Assembly: GCA_963766075.1 (NCBI GenBank)
Contig: CAVYAN010000011.1
Coordinates: 1 to 49,754, forward strand
Length of the DNA stretch: 49,754 nucleotides
Direction of reading: 5' to 3'
Origin: an uncultured cyanobacterium
Lineage (GTDB): Bacteria > Cyanobacteriota > Cyanobacteriia > Leptolyngbyales > Leptolyngbyaceae
The translations under genes were made by a program, and so were the position numbers. Under the pieces are notes generated by a model. That model made no database searches, was not told where the DNA came from, and saw only the letters and a program-made list of their open reading frames with translations. Numbering within the stretch: the first letter of the stretch is position 1; each line of letters opens with the position of its first letter. This document shows, one piece after another, positions 1-12,465 of the stretch.

Positions 1-1148
1 TGTCATCCTTTTAGGGAGAATAATCCATTAAGGTAAGCCGTACGGTGGGCTAAGACTTGTGGCACATTTTCAGCGTCCCACTGTGCTCCAGATATTTGCA
101 CCCGACGGTTAATTTGCTTAATCGCCGACTCAACGGCTCCAGAACCAATAGAACAGATGCCCTCAGCTTGATAGTAAGCATAGTTGACAATCCGGTGGCG
201 ATGCTTTTCGAGATAGGTGCAGAAGTTGTACGCCTGTTTCCGCTTCATATCCTTGAAGAGCGCCATCGTCTCATCCACCTGACCTTTCCATAAGTAGGCT
301 TCTGCTTGACGCAGGCGTTTGAGCGAACCACCGACTTTTTGTAAGTTTTCGTTGAGATGATACCAGTCTAAAATCTCCCGCCGTTGTTCGGGAGTTGCAA
401 TTGCCGCAATCAGGTTCCAAACACCGTCATGACCATCGCCCAAACAAGTGATAGGTGTACTTAAAGGTTGGCTATTCACCCAATCGATTAAGGGTTGATT
501 TTGATGCAGATTAGCCACCACACCCTGGTCGGTCGCAATCGCTTTGTAGTCGCGCCAGATGCAGAGGTCGCCCACAGGAGTCCGTAATCGCACCTTACCC
601 CCGTCAACACAGGCTTCCGTGATGGGTTGGAGGACCACTGGGGCGGGGAAATCGGTCGTTTGGACCAACCGCTGTTGCGTGTTGTCACTCACCACCATGC
701 CTGTGAGCAGCGCTACATCGGATTCTGCATTGGCATAGCTCACATTCGCACTAACGCGCAAGCAGCATAATTCTAAATACGGGCTGATTTGCTTGCCTGC
801 AGCCACACCTAAGGCTTGACCTTGTTTCTCGCTCAAGGGGAGGCGACCTAAAATACTTTTTAGGGTGCGGATGTATCCGGCGTTTGTACCTGTAATTGCT
901 GTGATAAAAAAACACCGACTTGGGGACCCACATGTTCCTGAAGTTGCGCGCGAATCCCGGCCTCAATCTGTCCCAGATTTGTCATCTGACTTTTATCTGC
1001 GTCGGCATACAAAATCTTGGCAATGGCTTGCACGTGCTCATCAATCTGAGCTTTTTCGGCTGGGGTCATGGATATACACTCCCTAAGTCAGGCTCAAACC
1101 CTGATTATACAAGACTTATTTTTCTACCCAAAAGGGTGACATGCTCCC
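1..1148 (-). mobile_element. ISKra4-family insertion sequence (one terminal IR cut by the window edge)
   Basis: The minus strand from 1148 reads GGGAGCATGTCACCCTTTTGGGTAGAAAAAT. Plus positions 1-24 read TGTCATCCTTTTAGGGAGAATAAT, a 20/24 match to the IR after its first 7 nt. The IRs enclose a DDE transposase. Confidence 0.9.
3..1069 (-). CDS. ISKra4-family transposase, two ORFs joined by a -1 frameshift
   Basis: Motifs CVDGGKVRLRT, LGDGHDGVWN, LDWYHLNENL and IGSGAVESAIKQI. ORF 860-1069 joins the 3-836 frame at a T7 run (plus A run 906-912), giving ...GVFFITAITGTNAGYIRTLKSILGRLPLSEKQ. Confidence 0.88.
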
Positions 1149-1533
1149 AATGCAGTTTCTTTATTACGCTCCAAACTTCTACATGATTGTTAGATGGAGT
1201 ATAAAACCCATTTCTTGATGGAACTGACTTATAAATAGGGTAATCATAGTTATCCCATCGCCACTCTTCAGCGTTGTCTAGAAAAACACTCAATTCTTGT
1301 GATGTGTCTAGCAGTTCTTGGTCTAAAGCAAGCCAAACACCATCTTTATGAATCGTAAATACAATCAAACTTCCTACTAGAAGTCGAACTTTGCCAGTTT
1401 CATAGTAAGCACCCCATTTATCACTTCCAAAGGAGTTGGCATAGCCTGCTGATTCACCAAAAATCTCAAGACATGATCTTCTTACTATCGTGTCAGGCAG
1501 CAGAGAATATATCACTTGTCTTGCTTCATCCAT
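1149..1533 (-). pseudogene. AT-rich unknown ORF (probable integron gene cassette), truncated at the 3' end by the IS
   Basis: The ORF starts about 55 nt after an attC R' box. Its reading frame runs into the IS end at 1148, so the final residues EHVTLLGRKISLV are IS-derived. Confidence 0.7.
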
Positions 1534-1586
1534 ATTTTCATCTCACCGATAATCTCTCGGCTGCGCCCCAACCAATAACCGAAGCC

Positions 1587-1670
1587 GTATAACGATCGAG
1601 TTGAACCGCACCTCCGGCTAAGCGCCTCCGGGCGGTTAACGGGGTGTCGGTTCCAACAAGTTTGTTCTTC
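1587..1670 (-). other. attC-like integron recombination site (84 bp)
   Basis: Minus strand: GAAGAAC (R'') - AAACTT - GTTGGAACCGACAC (L'') ... GTGCGGTTCAAC (L') - TCGATC - GTTATAC (R'). L'' and L' pair with two extrahelical bases. Confidence 0.8.
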
Positions 1671-1720
1671 CGCAGTTTCCGAGATTTTATCACATAGCAC
1701 CAAACTTTTGTACTACTGCG

Positions 1721-1785
1721 GAGGAACAACTTATTACATAGACTTTTTTCTCGATAACGCACTCATCCGGACATTATCGAGAATT
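1721..1785 (-). other. Putative attI-like site preceding the first cassette
   Basis: Minus strand ...TTATCGAGAAAAAAGTCTATGTAATAAGTT-G/TTCCTCCGCAGT. The GTT-initiated segment is complementary to the R'' side of the downstream attC. An inverted repeat TTCTCGATAA/TTATCGAGAA lies at 1748-1783. Confidence 0.45.
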
Positions 1786-2212
1786 TTTTCTCATGATATC
1801 CCTACTGCCGGGGAATTATTGCGAAAGTTTACTAAATCCACATAATTTATCCGACGAATGCAATGTAGTCTATGCCACCAATGATTCAGAGTCGTACATT
1901 TAAATGGCCCTCTCATCACATTATTATTTGATCACCTGAATGAGAAATTACGTCGTTATCATGCCTCGTACAGCAAATGGTAGCGCGAACTTTCCCAACG
2001 AAAGGGATGCCCGATTCATTCCCAACGATCGAGATCGCCCACCCATTTAAAAACCGCAATGGGGCGATCGCCCCTCTCATCCATGCCAATCTGCAATTCT
2101 CTAGAGCCATGGGACAGCAAGGAAAAGAGTTAAGGCGCGATCGCAGCAACAGCAACTCTGGCCGGAGTCGCAGCCGAAGTCTAGAGTCGCAACCGAGGGC
2201 AGGCTGATTGGC

Positions 2213-3505
2213 CTATGATTCAGCGTCCGGGGCGAAGGTAAAGAAATCCACCTGTTCCGCCACCGACGACTCCACCAGCTCCGTTACCCCCAACGCCACC
2301 TGCTCGTGATACAGATAGGCCATATCCAACGCCTCCAGCGTGGCCCGAATGTGGGTCCGAATGGGCTGACTGCCAATGCTTTGTACCAGTTCCGCCAGAT
2401 TGAGTTCCGCCTGCCAGTCATAGGCAGTGCCATGCAGTTGCACCAAGCGATCCAGCAACTGAATCAGCGTCGCCGTTTCCAGCGGGCGAATGGTAGGACA
2501 GTGGGAACCCAAAGCCCGGTCAAAAAAGCCTTGCAGCACAGTTTCCGCTTTGTCTCCAAATTTCTCCTGCGCTAGAGCCGGGATTTGGCTGCGATCGCTT
2601 TTCACACTGGTCCCTCCCGTCCCCGCGAACCAGACATCATTCCGCAGGCTAGAAGCCACCACCCCAAAGGTATAAATCGGATAGGGATTATGGCTGAATA
2701 GCTCCTGCTGATCGGCGCGGTTGACCGAACCCTTGGTCCAATTCAGCAACCAATTTAGATTACGGTAAGCCTGCAATCTGCCGACTTTCCCCAGGCGGCC
2801 AATTAATTCCACCTCATCCAGCAGCAGCACCCAGCCCTTGTAGCCGCACAGGGCGATCGCATCCGCCATCACCCCAAAGTAAGCACTGCCATGTTCCGTA
2901 TTGCGAAAATTCGTATCGAATTTGGGTAAGGTTTCGCCTCGGCAATTGCGATGAATGCGCTTCAGTTCCGGACTGGTGAGGCGCGTGCCCAACAAATCCC
3001 CTGCCAGCAAGTCCTGCTCTTCGCCAGTGGTGTAGAAGTAATCTTCTAGGACGATTGCCGGTAGGGGGTGGCTGTAGCGATCGGGCTGATGGATCGCGCT
3101 GTGGAGCAGATCTCCTGCCTTTTTAGAACTAAACGCCTTCGTCAGCCCCGTCAGCTTCGAGTCCGGCGTCCGAATCACCGCTGCCACCCGACTGTAGAAA
3201 TTCATCAAGTGATGGCAAGACACTTCTCGACTCAGGGATACCCGACTCACCGCAAAGCCCATATCCAAGGCCACATGCTCTACCGTCGTCAGGGCATGGG
3301 TTTTGCCCTGTCCATACGGCCCCCAGGCTAACCGACCCATGGGCCGTTGCCCTTGGGCAAATTGGGTTAAATCCTGGCGAATCGTATCCGTCAGGGATTC
3401 CCGCAGATCCGGCAGTTCCCGTGTCGAAATCCGAGTGGGAATCCCCGCCCGGAGCGATTCGATCACCGTAATCGCTTTACGGCGTGGCGCATCATATCGT
3501 TCCAT
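2213..3505 (-). CDS. BREX BrxD/DUF2791-like P-loop ATPase (second copy, 430 aa)
   Basis: N-terminal IESLRAG, Walker A GPYGQGKT and Walker B VLLLDEVE. The ATG at 3505 overlaps the upstream stop (TAATG). Confidence 0.8.
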   Translation of the reverse strand: MERYDAPRRKAITVIESLRAGIPTRISTRELPDLRESLTDTIRQDLTQFAQGQRPMGRLAWGPYGQGKTHALTTVEHVALDMGFAVSRVSLSREVSCHHLMNFYSRVAAVIRTPDSKLTGLTKAFSSKKAGDLLHSAIHQPDRYSHPLPAIVLEDYFYTTGEEQDLLAGDLLGTRLTSPELKRIHRNCRGETLPKFDTNFRNTEHGSAYFGVMADAIALCGYKGWVLLLDEVELIGRLGKVGRLQAYRNLNWLLNWTKGSVNRADQQELFSHNPYPIYTFGVVASSLRNDVWFAGTGGTSVKSDRSQIPALAQEKFGDKAETVLQGFFDRALGSHCPTIRPLETATLIQLLDRLVQLHGTAYDWQAELNLAELVQSIGSQPIRTHIRATLEALDMAYLYHEQVALGVTELVESSVAEQVDFFTFAPDAES

Positions 3506-4686
3506 TAACCCGCCTCCAGTGCCATCAACGTCGTCCCAATCACCTGCGCCTGCAATTGGCTGTAGTCGCTCAGGTCGGGCAACTCCCGCGCCTGCATTGA
3601 ATAGCCCGCCGTCTGAAACAAGTGCTGCAACCGCTCCTGCACCTGCTTTGTAAAGCCCTTTCCCTGGGCGACGAGATGCATGTCGGTATCCACGATATTG
3701 CCTAGAGAATTGAAGCGATCGATCGGCAACAAGCCCGTTTGCAAGCGCATCCACAGTGCTTCATAGCTTTTAAAGCCCCGGCGATCGTCCTCAATCATTT
3801 CCCGCCGTCCTGCCAGCAGCAGTAGGAAATGATCCAGCAACTCCACATCGTCGATGACTTGGCGAATTAGTTCACAGGTGTCCTTGATGGCGTTTGCCGT
3901 ATAGCGATAACGGCGGGTTTCGGGATGACGTTCGGTCAGAACCTCTAAATCATCGATCGCCACCACCAAGCCTGTCATGCCCGCCAAATGCAACAGCCGA
4001 ATCAAGGAATTGAGCCAGTAGCGAGCATTGGTTTTTTGTAGCCGTTCAAACAGCAACGTCGCCTGCTTTTGGTGGCGCTCCAGTTTTTCCCCGGCCAGCC
4101 ACTTCAACGCAAGGCGGATGCCGTCTTCATTGCCCATAATCAGTCGATTACTAATCACACTGTAGGCAAAAGCCCGAAATGAAGCGCTAAAATCCGTATC
4201 CTTCAAGGTCAGGCCAATGTTGCGCTTGATCTCATGCACCGCCAAATCACGGGTAAGCCCCTGATCGGTCATCAACAAGGACAGGATATCGTTGGAATCG
4301 TCATATTGTCCATAGCCGAGCTTTTTGGCAACTTGGTGGCAGAGGCCCGTCACCAAGTTTTCCTTGTTCACTTGTTTGACAATCGCCCGGTACAGTCCCG
4401 GCAAATCATTCAGCCGATATTCGTGGGCAGACAAATCCACAATTTGATAATTCAACGCTTTGGCATCTTGTAAAGCGCAGCGGATCAAATGCGTCTTCCC
4501 CGTGCCGGGACCGCCCACCAACACTTTCACTTTGCTGCCCCCATCGGCAATATAGTTGGCCAGGTAGTGATCCCGCAGGTAATCCAGCCAGCGATCGCGC
4601 CCTTGGGTCATTTCCAGCAGCAGATCCGAGTGCACAGGGGGCTGGCCCGACAATAATGCCTCAATATCTAATTCATCTATGCGCAT
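3505..4686 (-). CDS. BREX BrxD/DUF2791-like P-loop ATPase (first copy, 393 aa)
   Basis: Motifs IEALLSG, GGSKVKVLVGGPGTGKTH (Walker A), GLVVAIDDLE (Walker B) and GFKSYEALWMRL. Confidence 0.82.
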   Translation of the reverse strand: MRIDELDIEALLSGQPPVHSDLLLEMTQGRDRWLDYLRDHYLANYIADGGSKVKVLVGGPGTGKTHLIRCALQDAKALNYQIVDLSAHEYRLNDLPGLYRAIVKQVNKENLVTGLCHQVAKKLGYGQYDDSNDILSLLMTDQGLTRDLAVHEIKRNIGLTLKDTDFSASFRAFAYSVISNRLIMGNEDGIRLALKWLAGEKLERHQKQATLLFERLQKTNARYWLNSLIRLLHLAGMTGLVVAIDDLEVLTERHPETRRYRYTANAIKDTCELIRQVIDDVELLDHFLLLLAGRREMIEDDRRGFKSYEALWMRLQTGLLPIDRFNSLGNIVDTDMHLVAQGKGFTKQVQERLQHLFQTAGYSMQARELPDLSDYSQLQAQVIGTTLMALEAG

Positions 4687-4692
4687 AGTCAA

Positions 4693-5496
4693 TCATCCAT
4701 CCCCTTCCACCCGATGAATCGCCAAGGTGCTCACCCGGCTTTCTTGCCCCTGACTGCTAATCAGGACAAAGCTGGGCAGATTGCGAGACGGTTGTAACTC
4801 AAACTGGTATTGATCGTACCGGATTTCTGGATGCTCCTTTAAGCGGGCCAGATCAAAGGTGAACAGCGGTTCCGGATAGTCCTGTTTCGCCACCTGCTTC
4901 AGCGTTAACAGACGATAAATATCCTTCAGGCCAATTGAATGCCCCCAGTTGACTTCATCCTGATGCATGGCAACCCGATTCAGGATCTCATAGGCACTCA
5001 GCAATTCCCGGCAAAATCGCATCGCGTCGAATTTACTGTCAATCACCTTTCGATACTGGCCGTTGACCCAGTGAGCAACCTGTTCCGCCGCAAAGGCTTT
5101 GGTTTGCTGAGATTTGCGCCCCATACTCAACCGCACGGTGTTCTGATCGAGGTTAAACGTCAATTTGAAGGGAGGAAATTCGTAGTTAGGAAACTCGCCC
5201 CGCCAGGGCACACCGACAGCGTGCAGCGCCGCTTCAATTTCCGGGGGATAGTCAGCAGACTGGACAAAGGCTTGATCGGCCTCTAGCCCTTGGCGGATCA
5301 ACTGGGAGTTTTCCTGCCAGCGATCGCCCAACTTCCCTAATTCATCATCGAGACTGTCGAGCACCTGGGCTGTCGTTTTCAAGTCCCAATCTTGGCGCGA
5401 TTTTTTGATCACCGCCCATAACTTCAGCGATCGCTTGAAGACACTATCCAGCTCGCTAATCGCTGATTTTTCCAACGCGTGATCGAACAGTTCCAT
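4693..5496 (-). CDS. Hypothetical protein, first gene of the ATPase operon
   Basis: 267-aa ORF with a helical-looking N-terminus, ending 6 nt before the next ATG. No family recognised. Confidence 0.8.
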   Translation of the reverse strand: MELFDHALEKSAISELDSVFKRSLKLWAVIKKSRQDWDLKTTAQVLDSLDDELGKLGDRWQENSQLIRQGLEADQAFVQSADYPPEIEAALHAVGVPWRGEFPNYEFPPFKLTFNLDQNTVRLSMGRKSQQTKAFAAEQVAHWVNGQYRKVIDSKFDAMRFCRELLSAYEILNRVAMHQDEVNWGHSIGLKDIYRLLTLKQVAKQDYPEPLFTFDLARLKEHPEIRYDQYQFELQPSRNLPSFVLISSQGQESRVSTLAIHRVEGDG

Positions 5497-5743
5497 GATG
5501 AGTTGCGATAGGAAATTTAATTTTTCCCATAGTATCCCAATTCATCAGCATAGATGAGTTTCCTGGGCAGGCCCTGCATTTCCTCCCACCAGGCACTTGC
5601 CACCCACAGATCACCTGTCCCGTGCCTAGGGAACCCGTAGCACCAAACCCGTTTCGCCCAAGTCCCCTAGAGCCAACCACAAAACAGGCCCGTTAAACCG
5701 TGGCGACTCATAAACTCTGAATATCTAAAATTCTGACCTCAGA

Positions 5744-5815
5744 AGGCGGCACCCAGATTCGAACTGGGGGATGAGGGTTTTGCAGACCCTTGCCTTACCA
5801 CTTGGCTATGCCGCC
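5744..5815 (-). tRNA. trnC: tRNA-Cys (GCA)
   Basis: GGCGGCATAGCCAAGTGGTAAGGCAAGGGTCTGCAAAACCCTCATCCCCCAGTTCGAATCTGGGTGCCGCCT forms a cloverleaf with a GCA anticodon. No encoded CCA. Confidence 0.97.
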
Positions 5816-6088
5816 GAACTAGACCAATCTAACTTAGTCCTGACTCAATTAGACCTCGAGTAGTTTAGCACTTTACCGGACCGGATAGTGAGGGGAACGC
5901 ACGAAACAGCGCCAAAGAAATTTCCGTCCCTGTTTTCGTCCCTAAAGTATTTTCGTCCCTAAAGTTATCCTCCCTCGATTTGCCATAACCCAATTCGCTA
6001 TAAATTGTGAGCTCTCCCTTTCTAATTTCACCATTGCCTGTACAATGCTGGATGATTATTGCTGTTCATCCCTAATGGGAGGATCCTC

Positions 6089-7708
6089 ATGTCGGAAAGC
6101 GACCTGCCTCGCAAGTTCCGTAACCGTCGCGCTAATGGATCCGTGGGGCTACCGCAGTCAGGTAAACAGCGGCCCTGGTGGCAGCGGGTGTTCGGCAAGC
6201 CTCCGCTCGCCAAACCTTTACAGGGAAAGCGGGGTGCCCCTCCGATCCAACCCCTGGGGCCCACCCTTCTCGATCCCCAGACGGCCTTGGATTCCCAGAC
6301 AGCCCTAGATCCCCAGTTAGCGTTTCAGCCCGGAAACACTGCCAGCCCCACGCAGCGTCAGGGACAACGGATTGAGCCATTGCGAGTGTCTGGCAATCCT
6401 GTAGCGCTGCCTCGCCAGCACCACCGCAGAAACAAAGGGTCAAGAGTTGGACAGCCCCACCCCCTTCTAGGGACGCCTCTGCCGTCAGGCGGATCTCGGC
6501 AGAAGGCGAATCAGACGGCGCAGCGATCGCCCGAACCACTCCCACGTCTGCCCAAACCCAACAGCCCCATGGCCGTAGTCAGGCTGAAGTCGAGATCCCC
6601 CGCCCCCCCCCATGGTAAAGGGCATCATAAAGGGTTGAGTCATCACGGAAAAGTGCGGCGTCCGCAGTCACCTCGGCTGAGGGCGATGGTCTACACCCTG
6701 CGGCTCCTCATTTTGAGCGTCGGAGTAGGAGTCCTAGCCGGAACCCTTCTGTCCGTCTGGGATCCCGCCAGTCGGCTAACCGCGAGCAATTCCCAGCAAA
6801 CCGTTCAGGCCAGTCCCAGTCCATCCGTAGGCTCCCTTGCAGAAATGACGACCCAAGGAACGGAAATCCAGCCCCTGAAGACAGCCATCCAAGACTTGGC
6901 CTTCAAAAACCCCCAGTTGGCCCCAGGAGTATTCCTCCTGGATTTGAATACAAATGGCTATGTGGATTTAAACGGAGGCACCCTCTTTTCAGCGGCCAGT
7001 ACGATTAAACTGCCCGTGCTCATTGCCTTTTTTCAGGATGTCGATCAGGGCAAAATTCGCCTGGATGAACCGTTAACTCTGTCGCCATCCGCGATCGCTA
7101 AGGAAGCCGGTGACTTGCAATATCAGCCCATCGGCACCCAAGTCAGCGCCCTAGAAACCGCCGTACGGATGATTACCGTCAGCGATAATACAGCCACCAA
7201 TATGTTGATTGAGCGATTAGGGGGCAAGGAAACCTTGACCACTCGGTTTAAGTCTTGGGGGTTGACAGCAACGGTTGTGCGCAATCTCTTAGCGGACGTC
7301 GCGGGCACGAATACCACCACCGCCCAGGAAATGGTATGGCTGTTGGCGCGCATTAATCGGGGGGATTTGATCTCGATGACTTCCCGAGATCGCATGATCG
7401 ATATCATGCGGCAAACTCAGTCCACCGGGCTCCTGCCCAGCGGTCTTGGCCCGGATGCAAAGATCGCGCACAAAACTGGCACCCTGGGGGTTTTGTTAGC
7501 AGATGTGGGCATCGTGGATTTACCCAACGGCAAGCGGTACGCGATCGCGGTCTTGGTCAAACGCCCCTTCCAGGATGAAACTGCCGCCCAACTGATTCGG
7601 CAAATTTCCAAAACCACCTACGACTATTTCAGCAAACCCCAGCCCTCGCCTAGCCCCTTGGGGTTTACGCCAGTCGCCCCAACGGCGGCTCCCGTGGGTG
7701 CACGATGA
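6089..7708 (+). CDS. Serine hydrolase, class A beta-lactamase-like, with long basic N-terminus and one TM helix
   Basis: Motifs SAASTIK (SxxK), SDN and HKTG. GGAGG RBS before the ATG at 6089. Confidence 0.88.
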   Translation: MSESDLPRKFRNRRANGSVGLPQSGKQRPWWQRVFGKPPLAKPLQGKRGAPPIQPLGPTLLDPQTALDSQTALDPQLAFQPGNTASPTQRQGQRIEPLRVSGNPVALPRQHHRRNKGSRVGQPHPLLGTPLPSGGSRQKANQTAQRSPEPLPRLPKPNSPMAVVRLKSRSPAPPHGKGHHKGLSHHGKVRRPQSPRLRAMVYTLRLLILSVGVGVLAGTLLSVWDPASRLTASNSQQTVQASPSPSVGSLAEMTTQGTEIQPLKTAIQDLAFKNPQLAPGVFLLDLNTNGYVDLNGGTLFSAASTIKLPVLIAFFQDVDQGKIRLDEPLTLSPSAIAKEAGDLQYQPIGTQVSALETAVRMITVSDNTATNMLIERLGGKETLTTRFKSWGLTATVVRNLLADVAGTNTTTAQEMVWLLARINRGDLISMTSRDRMIDIMRQTQSTGLLPSGLGPDAKIAHKTGTLGVLLADVGIVDLPNGKRYAIAVLVKRPFQDETAAQLIRQISKTTYDYFSKPQPSPSPLGFTPVAPTAAPVGAR

Positions 7709-10932: not shown

Positions 10933-12465
10933 CTAGATCGGCTGCTTCCGACGGGTAGATCTATCACCCAGCTTCTGATAGAAGCCCCACTCCACCTGCT
11001 CTTCCGACAGCTCGGGATCCACACCCGCAAATACATCGCGGAAAATGGTCCGAGAGCCATGCCAGATGTGACCAAAGAAGAACAGCAAAGCAAAGACAGC
11101 ATGTCCAAACGTAAACCAACCGCGAGGGCTAGTCCGGAACACCCCATCAGAGTTGAGGGTTTCGCGATCGAACTCAAAAGGCTCGCCCAGTTGTGACGCC
11201 CGCGCATAGCGCTTCACCACCGCCGGATCGGCAAACTTCTGACCATCGAGAGCACCGCCGTAGAACGCGACTGTTACACCGCCTTGCTCAAAGCTGTAGC
11301 GCGATTCTGCCTTCCGGAAAGGAATATCAGCCCGCACCACACCATCTTTGTCCGTCAAGATAGTAGGGAAGTTCTCAAAGAAGTTGGGCAAGCGCCGTAC
11401 AAAAAGCTCTCGGCCTTCCTTATCTGTGAACACCGGATGCCCGAGCCATTGTTGCGCAATCCCGTCGCCTTTATTCATTTGACCTGTACGGAACAACCCA
11501 CCCTTCGCAGGGCTGTTGCCCACATAGTCGTAGAACGCCAGCTTCTCAGGAATGGCAGCCCAAGCTTCCGCCGGGGTTGCGCCGTCCGCCAGACTGGTTT
11601 GGACCCGACGATTAATTTCCTGTTGGAAATAACCGCTATCCCACTGGTAGCGGGTTGGGCCAAATAACTCAATCGGGGTTGCAGCGGCACCATACCACAT
11701 GGTTCCCGCCACCACAAATGCTGCAAAGAACACTGCCGCAATACTGCTAGACAGTACGGTTTCAATGTTCCCCATCCGCAATGCCTTATAAAGGCGCTCC
11801 GGCGGGCGCACACTTAAGTGGAAGACTCCAGCAATAATCCCCACAATCCCCGCAGCAATGTGGTGAGCCACAATGCCGCCCGGATTAAAGGGGTTAAAGC
11901 CAGCCGGACCCCATTCCGGTGCCACAGGCTGAATACTGCCCGTCAGCCCATAGGGATCGGATACCCACATCCCAGGCCCCCACAGGCCCGTTAGGTGGAA
12001 AGCCCCAAACCCAAAGCAGAGAAGTCCTGACAAAAATAAATGAATGCCGAACATTTTAGGCAGGTCGAGCGCAGGCTCACCTGTCCGGGGGTCTCTAAAC
12101 AGTTCTAAATCCCAAAATACCCAGTGCCAGCAAGCTGCCAAGAAGCACAAGCCAGACAGAACGATGTGCGCTAGAGCCACACCTTCAAACGACCAGAAGC
12201 CAGGATCAACACCTGTTTCACCTGTAACACTCCAACCGCCCCAAGAGCCACTCACGCCCAAACGCGCCATAAAAGGCAGAACGAACATGCCCTGTCTCCA
12301 CATGGGATTCAGGACCGGATCGCCGGGATCAAAAATTGCCAATTCGTATAATGCCATCGAACCCGCCCAGCCTGCCACTAAAGCAGTGTGCATCAGGTGG
12401 GTGGCGATGAGCCGTCCTGGATCATTCACCAGGACCGTATGAACTCGATACCAGGGTAGTCCCAT
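10933..12465 (-). CDS. psbB: Photosystem II CP47
   Basis: N-terminus [19 protein letters not shown]; full-length 510 aa. Confidence 0.99.

Follow-up and report, generated by a model that had tools for sequence, protein, structure and literature searches.

An undescribed, motor-less gene trio, proposed to resemble the origin recognition complex and related to BREX and Shango, in an uncultured cyanobacterium

A conserved three-gene module

This study concerns three adjoining genes of an uncultured cyanobacterium of the family Leptolyngbyaceae. They lie in a stretch of 49,754 nucleotides (nt), referred to below as the window, which corresponds to positions 1 to 49,754 of contig CAVYAN010000011.1 (GenBank assembly GCA_963766075.1). 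All three are on the minus strand. Gene A (4693..5496) is an open reading frame (ORF) of 267 amino acids (aa) that belongs to no family in Pfam, PADLOC or NCBIfam, and none of 125 members of the A family matched PHROG. It is followed by two genes encoding ATPases of the BrxD/SngB family (PF10923), namely ATPase 1, called B (3505..4686, 393 aa), and ATPase 2, called C (2213..3505, 430 aa). The tight coupling announced by the original prediction, which was made from the letters of the window, was confirmed: 6 nt separate A from B, and the stop codon of B overlaps the start codon of C in TAATG. No gene for a TerB protein, PglZ or a helicase adjoins the trio in the window, again as predicted.

The family assignment of both ATPases is clear, since B (87.9 bits) and C (69.2 bits) pass the Pfam gathering cut-off of PF10923 (22.2 bits). 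The SngB profile probability is 99.9% for B and 99.7% for C. In PADLOC, the matches to SngB are weak (E 3.5e-12 for B and 1.2e-10 for C), as are those to BrxD, and the BrxD equivalog NF033438, with a cut-off of 350 bits, is not reached by either protein (70 and 47 bits). The two ATPases also differ strongly from each other, as had been noticed, with 25% identity across 118 residues (E=0.029).

The analysis covered 95 loci, of which 9 came from genome contigs, 6 from phylum genomes and 80 were the best of 96 metagenome matches. Among the 67 loci with at least 2.3 kb upstream of C, to which the count of gene order was limited, 64 carry A, B and C in this order, or 41 of 44 clusters at 90%. This recurrence shows that the trio is not a chance arrangement. 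The exceptions are a locus without A (L040), one with C only (L103) and one eroded by deletions (L112). The homologues of this clade lie outside BREX loci, and the proposed stand-alone unit is supported. Three pairs of relatives gave dN/dS values of 0.02-0.13 for A, B and C alike, and the trio is thus under purifying selection. Close homologues of A number 96, and clustering at 50% gives 295 representatives. Among the sources named are several Cyanobacteriota, Sericytochromatia, Bacillota (Sporomusa, Negativicutes, Oscillospiraceae), Ca. Atribacteria and a metagenome-assembled genome of Bacteroidota; no RNA holder is listed. Weak matches to the A profile in three genomes were not accepted as members (G022, where there is no trio, G098 and G198). 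In three cyanobacterial loci, a similar, unannotated and divergent ORF of about 250 aa was observed upstream of A (L009:8705-9481, L042:4721-5482 and L047:5119-5817), with an adjoining ParA gene in two of them.

Complementary motif loss in the two ATPases

The catalytic motifs of the two ATPases were compared in paired alignments of 40 rows, comprising the window and one full-length locus per 90% cluster. In C, the Walker A lysine K68, the Walker B pair D230-E231 and the lid arginines R383 and R387 are each kept in all 40 rows. In B, K64 of Walker A is equally invariant, as is R314, and the position of the Walker B glutamate, occupied by D246 in the window, is aspartate in 35 rows, asparagine in two, glutamine in two and glutamate in one. 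The statement that both proteins keep their Walker motifs is therefore correct for the strings themselves (GGPGTGKT/VVAIDDLE in B and GPYGQGKT/LLLDEVE in C), but the Walker B of B reads DD in place of DE, and this departure is family-wide.

Further motifs are divided between the two proteins. B carries the motif RRGFKSYEALWMRL with the conserved R314, a candidate arginine finger, and has lost the lid motif; conversely, C lacks the finger motif and possesses the lid motif PIRTHIR. Eight single-gene ATPases served for comparison: six plasmid SngB proteins from TerB-ATPase-helicase operons, one SngB-like protein of the window's genome and one BrxD. Walker B reads DE in all eight and the lid PR motif is present in seven, and the motif RRG..SY.AL..RL is found in all six plasmid SngB proteins. 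In a profile alignment, this last motif is where RRGFKSYEALWMRL of B falls, the lid motif is matched by PIRTHIR of C, and the alignment contains no counterpart of the finger motif in C or of the lid motif in B.

The same division of finger and lid is present in the sister cassettes described below, yet their first ATPase retains the DE of Walker B. An extreme case is provided by genome G272 (L140:8534-11618), where a divergent trio without helicase encodes a first ATPase of 316 aa that keeps the finger motif, ALQTRI, but has lost both Walker motifs, A and B, as well as the lid. A quick-method tree, not finished, places C together with the sister cassettes' second ATPases; the tie of B to their first ATPases is not settled in it.

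On the basis of these complementary losses, B and C are predicted, with good though incomplete confidence, to form an obligate heterodimer with a single ATP-hydrolysing site. The heteromer of the two ATPases proposed originally thus gains indirect support at the level of sequence. A comparable arrangement is described for yeast and human ORC (origin recognition complex), whose one active site is made of Orc1 and the finger of Orc4 (PMC5291709). If the split is correctly read, K68 and E231 of C and R314 of B should be needed for function, and the Walker B of B should be dispensable. Among solved structures, none matched the C profile meaningfully. A complex prediction for A with trimmed B and trimmed C (score 0.30, mark 0.32) counts neither for nor against their association.

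Protein A, a probable DNA-binding partner

The AlphaFold2 model of A (pLDDT 91.6 in full and 96.2 for residues 80-267) comprises a coiled-coil hairpin (1-80), a small alpha/beta domain (80-155) and a predicted winged helix (156-265). The best fold matches of residues 156-265 are winged helices, from kleisin, RPC62, ORC and Cdt1, with Z of 5-6. Foldseek, the comparison suggested at the outset, found no match in the PDB at E<=0.001 for A, either full or trimmed. With the full-length protein, the results of a VIA search were filled with generic coiled coils. In the Atlas, A matched unnamed clusters only and its C-terminal part was without named match. Fused, longer forms of A were not found; as evidence, this is weak.

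The conserved residues of A include the basic R127, K128, K200, K204 and R238, together with D215. Those that are near-invariant are mostly aromatic, hydrophobic, glycine or proline, with one aspartate, and occupy structural positions. As no conserved catalytic constellation is evident, A is read as a DNA-binding adaptor or partner of the ATPases rather than an enzyme, a reading considered fairly probable. BrxD is said (PMC12839542) to lack a winged-helix DNA-binding domain.

These properties bear on the proposal that the 267-aa protein acts as an effector, and more generally on the idea that the trio forms a self-contained system of abortive infection, where the ATPase pair would set free A as a toxic effector. 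Minimal layouts that combine a sensor ATPase with an effector are common in defence, and the helical hairpin predicted at the N-terminus of A could suit such a role. However, A gave no sign of a nuclease, TIR, membrane or NAD-cleaving domain, and the composition of its near-invariant residues also argues against a toxin. A released effector is accordingly considered quite improbable, and the adaptor fits better.

Sister cassettes and the absent motor

Larger cassettes have the trio as their common core and add a helicase or BrxL to it. A four-gene sister cassette, made of an A-like gene, two ATPase genes and a gene for a BrxHI/SngC-type helicase, was found in genome G156, on plasmid3 of Aulosira laxa and on Desulfomonile pDESTI.01, where it lies near AbiEi/AbiEii. 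The remote A homologues heading these cassettes match the A profile with E of 1e-20 to 1e-26, and the best score of the helicase is with BrxHI (E 8.8e-99). In Aulosira laxa NIES-50 plasmid3 (L124:1660-13554), type 2 BREX-like PglZ, BrxD and helicase genes are directly followed by the four-gene cassette; the consecutive run includes two BrxHI-like helicases and three BrxD-like ATPases. A nearer clade, in which C is 33-36% identical, combines the trio with an overlapping Lon-less BrxL in 4 loci from 3 clusters. At L111:9260-10753, L113:2849-4315 and L115:3520-4998, no other BREX gene is in view. BrxL is described as MCM-like in PMC10164562 and PMC12839542.

The clade of the window differs from these cassettes by the absence of a motor. 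Indeed, no BrxHI/SngC-type helicase lies downstream of the trio in any of the 53 loci with at least 2.5 kb of flank, which indicates that the motor-less state is old and maintained. This observation bears on the notion that the trio is a functionless, decaying remnant of the four-gene helicase cassette. Such decay does occur, as illustrated by the eroded copies already mentioned (L112, L040 and L103) and by genome G144, where the second ATPase of a sister cassette is broken by insertion sequences (L033:5950-10451). But the low dN/dS values, the intact order across 41 clusters and the long-standing absence of the helicase contradict this notion, which selection largely refutes and which is very improbable. 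The broken cassette of G144 lies beside type I restriction-modification methyltransferase genes, and no helicase was seen after it.

Other helicases occur near the trio. Among 34 clusters with upstream flank, 8 have an SNF2-type helicase next to A, and these probably represent few lineages; the helicase is divergently oriented in seven loci (L078, L081, L086, L087, L089, L098 and L104) and co-oriented in L107. In a single case, a large SF1 helicase with PDC-S37/Mokosh-like similarity follows C by 60 nt on the same strand (L060:5429-9682), and in L028 a different large helicase lies 4 kb upstream on the opposite strand.

A motor could also be supplied in trans if the trio worked only as an accessory, loading the helicase or BrxL of a BREX or Shango system located at another site of the same genome. 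PglZ occurs in 3 of the 7 trio genomes, against 32 of 394 others (p=0.017), even if two of the three belong to one genus, and both BrxL and PglZ were found in 3 of the 5 trio genomes tested. The contact between the Aulosira sister cassette and type 2 BREX-like genes points in the same direction. So do genes of the window's own genome, located on other contigs: SngB-like ATPase genes, one intact and one broken, and a split SngC-like helicase (G000:C19:851-2197, G000:C45:288-1689 and G000:C126:12323-14501). These scattered genes, which have no adjacent TerB gene, look like a dispersed or decaying Shango. On the other hand, two single-contig genomes, G398 (100% complete) and G425 (99%), carry the C gene, with the full trio seen in G398, and contain no match to PglZ, BrxL or an SngC-type helicase. 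The known partners are therefore not required in trans. No PglZ or BrxL match was obtained in the window's genome either, which is 85% complete. An accessory role is on balance improbable.

Flanks of the module

The upstream boundary of the module is a tRNA-Cys(GCA) gene (5744..5815, minus strand), 247 nt from the trio on the same strand, which agrees with the original prediction; an Rfam search matched this tRNA only. No duplicated tRNA end was found in the genome, so that integration at tRNA-Cys is not shown. The integron-like array proposed for the other side was not recovered. It is reduced to one attC-like hairpin at about 1586..1690 (-21.5 kcal/mol, without assigned strand) and one cassette-like ORF of low GC content (1105..1533, minus strand, 142 aa, GC content at third codon positions (GC3) 0.28), both outside the module. 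The 3' end of this ORF enters an insertion sequence of the ISKra4 family (1..1148, minus strand) that occupies the contig end, 1.5 kb beyond the attC-like site. Tandem attC sites of a cassette array were not found in positions 1-6100 of the window, which contain the single site.

The attC-like element, of 150 nt, exists in three near-identical copies scattered beside different ORFs (window 1583-1735, G000:C37:2700-2842 and G000:C65:48662-48814). A full integron integrase is encoded on another contig of the genome (G000:C41:95203-96141), and several integrase fragments are found elsewhere. Beyond the tRNA, positions 6059-7708 encode a protein that we take, by its motifs, to be class A beta-lactamase-like; its N-terminus is long and of low complexity, it contains a membrane segment, and homologous DNA is present in relatives. 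The gene psbB lies at position 10933 of the window.

Defence or host upkeep

Taken together, A, B and C are tentatively proposed, with slightly less than an even chance, to constitute an ORC-like switch for DNA recognition and loading, which probably acts against foreign DNA and is built on the obligate, single-site B-C pair. For the defence role as such, the balance is about even. Two properties speak for it: every recognisable relative and client of the trio is a part of BREX or Shango, and its spread is patchy. Individual neighbours include a type III restriction-modification system (L085), methyltransferases (L059, L083), a CRISPR III-A system (L108), a TIR protein (L006) and toxin-antitoxin genes.

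Several results weigh against the proposal. The enrichment in defence islands that could be expected was sought by a hand tally of Pfam matches at E<=1e-12 that took in, on either side, the two closest genes. The tallied families (toxin-antitoxin, restriction-modification, CRISPR, BrxL, TIR, Uma2 and transposase) were chosen after the trio neighbours had been seen, the control sites were cyanobacterial only, with 2 of 36 left out, and the flanks of many trio loci are short. Defence, toxin-antitoxin or mobile neighbours were counted at 16 of 49 trio loci and 6 of 34 control sites (p=0.14), at 13 of 46 trio loci when the BrxL clade was removed (p=0.30), and at 5 of 21 when only cyanobacterial loci were considered (p=0.73). 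This test is small and reveals no clear defence enrichment. In addition, no nuclease or other effector is linked to the trio, and searches of 72,556 plasmids, of 50,697 phage records and of IMG/VR yielded no member of its clade. The trio has a host-like GC3 (0.62-0.65) and is kept at one site among housekeeping genes in L029/L030 and in the Phormidesmis loci. On the side of the mechanism, the finger assignment of R314 is based on alignment, and the winged-helix and alpha/beta fold matches of A, at Z 5-6.7, are in the range of common folds.

Many of these observations would be explained if an ORC-like A-B-C had been domesticated for host DNA upkeep in this clade, for instance in replication restart, in the DNA-damage response or in a chromatin-like remodelling with SNF2. 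The non-significant neighbour test, the strong purifying selection, the host-like GC3, the stable sites in some lineages and the absence from plasmids and phages all agree with this explanation, as does the SNF2 helicase beside 8 of 34 clusters. Its main difficulty is the distribution of the trio. The clade is present in just 7 of 401 phylum genomes, including the window's own, in 3 of 40 relatives and in 2 of 24 genomes of the same family, at unrelated sites, which is unusual for upkeep genes. Moreover, the closest relatives and the motors of the sister cassettes are BREX and Shango parts. Host upkeep, rather unlikely in our estimate, is nevertheless ranked next after defence.

Proposed mechanism

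In the proposed ORC-like switch, C would bind ATP through its Walker A motif, its Walker B motif and its lid arginines, and R314 of B would complete the pocket of C, as Orc4 does for Orc1. The reverse B-C interface has no finger and no catalytic glutamate, for which reason the pair is expected to work as a one-shot switch and not as a processive ring. The winged helix for DNA binding, which is missing from BrxD-type ATPases, would come from A. The last step is the most speculative. With the coupled motor gene gone in this clade, A-B-C might clamp the target DNA and block its replication; alternatively, it might load a motor encoded elsewhere, such as the SNF2-type helicase found beside some clusters.

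A broader and more doubtful generalisation, which we regard as possible rather than likely, is that of a bacterial mini-ORC. A winged-helix adaptor and a single-site heterodimer would recognise foreign DNA and load interchangeable motors (a Lhr/Ski2-type helicase, BrxL or perhaps SNF2), and the motor-less form would be a stand-alone defence that blocks the replication of the invader by loading alone. If true, the mini-ORC would offer the smallest model in which to test how BREX-family ATPases halt phage replication without cutting DNA. The action of the BREX and Shango ATPases is an open question, and the trio reduces this problem to three small proteins, of which the natural versions with a helicase, with BrxL or with no motor allow direct tests of loader function and motor swapping. 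The trio would represent a new system if defence is confirmed, and otherwise a bacterial ORC-like switch.

Comparison with known systems

No catalogued system is matched by the trio in PADLOC or NCBIfam. No description of the cassette was found in the open-access literature searched, though the supplement of PMC12839542 may list such neighbourhoods. The suggestion of a possibly uncharacterised system is upheld to this extent, and the trio is regarded as a module that is related to BREX and Shango, ORC-like, devoid of a motor and undescribed.

Shango consists of SngA (a TerB protein), the SngB ATPase and the SngC DEAD/DEAH helicase. B and C are SngB homologues, and the partner-ATPase-helicase layout is that of the sister cassette. 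However, Shango has a single ATPase instead of two sub-functionalised ones, the profile of the A family matches none of five SngA proteins tested, and no SngC helicase adjoins the trio in the window or lies downstream of it in the 53 loci. With no TerB protein and no helicase, the trio falls outside Shango.

The dyad of BrxD and BrxHI in type 2 BREX (Pgl) shares with the trio the PF10923 ATPase family, and the sister-cassette helicase has its best score with BrxHI. BrxD has been proposed as a helicase loader (PMC12839542). In contrast with type 2 BREX, the trio locus is devoid of PglW, PglX, PglY and PglZ and has an extra gene for a predicted winged-helix protein. Neither the window nor the scanned neighbours contain PglZ or BrxC/PglY, the core of types 2 and 6, and no methyltransferase recurs among the clustered trio neighbours as a counterpart of PglX.

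In type 1/4 BREX, the pair BrxC-BrxB joins an active ATPase of the ORC clade to an AAA+ protein that is inactive (PMC13326643; PMC10164562), and a short, Lon-less BrxL is typical of type 4 (PMC12839542). The trio would resemble them in its predicted pairing of an active with an inactive ATPase, and the BrxL of the sister clade is of the short, Lon-less form. Nevertheless, B and C are BrxD-family proteins of 400 residues, not BrxC or BrxB, and the trio has no methyltransferase, phosphorothioation genes or PglZ. Without PglZ, BrxC or a methyltransferase, it also stands outside BREX.

The eukaryotic ORC, in which Orc1-Orc4 and Cdc6/Cdt1 load MCM, would share with the trio the composite site, the winged-helix contact and, in one sister clade, an MCM-like client in the form of BrxL. 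This likeness is an analogy only, since the trio is bacterial, patchy and, by its distribution, non-essential. By a similar analogy, the trio may well work like the ATPase-helicase modules of Shango and BREX, though it is a member of neither.

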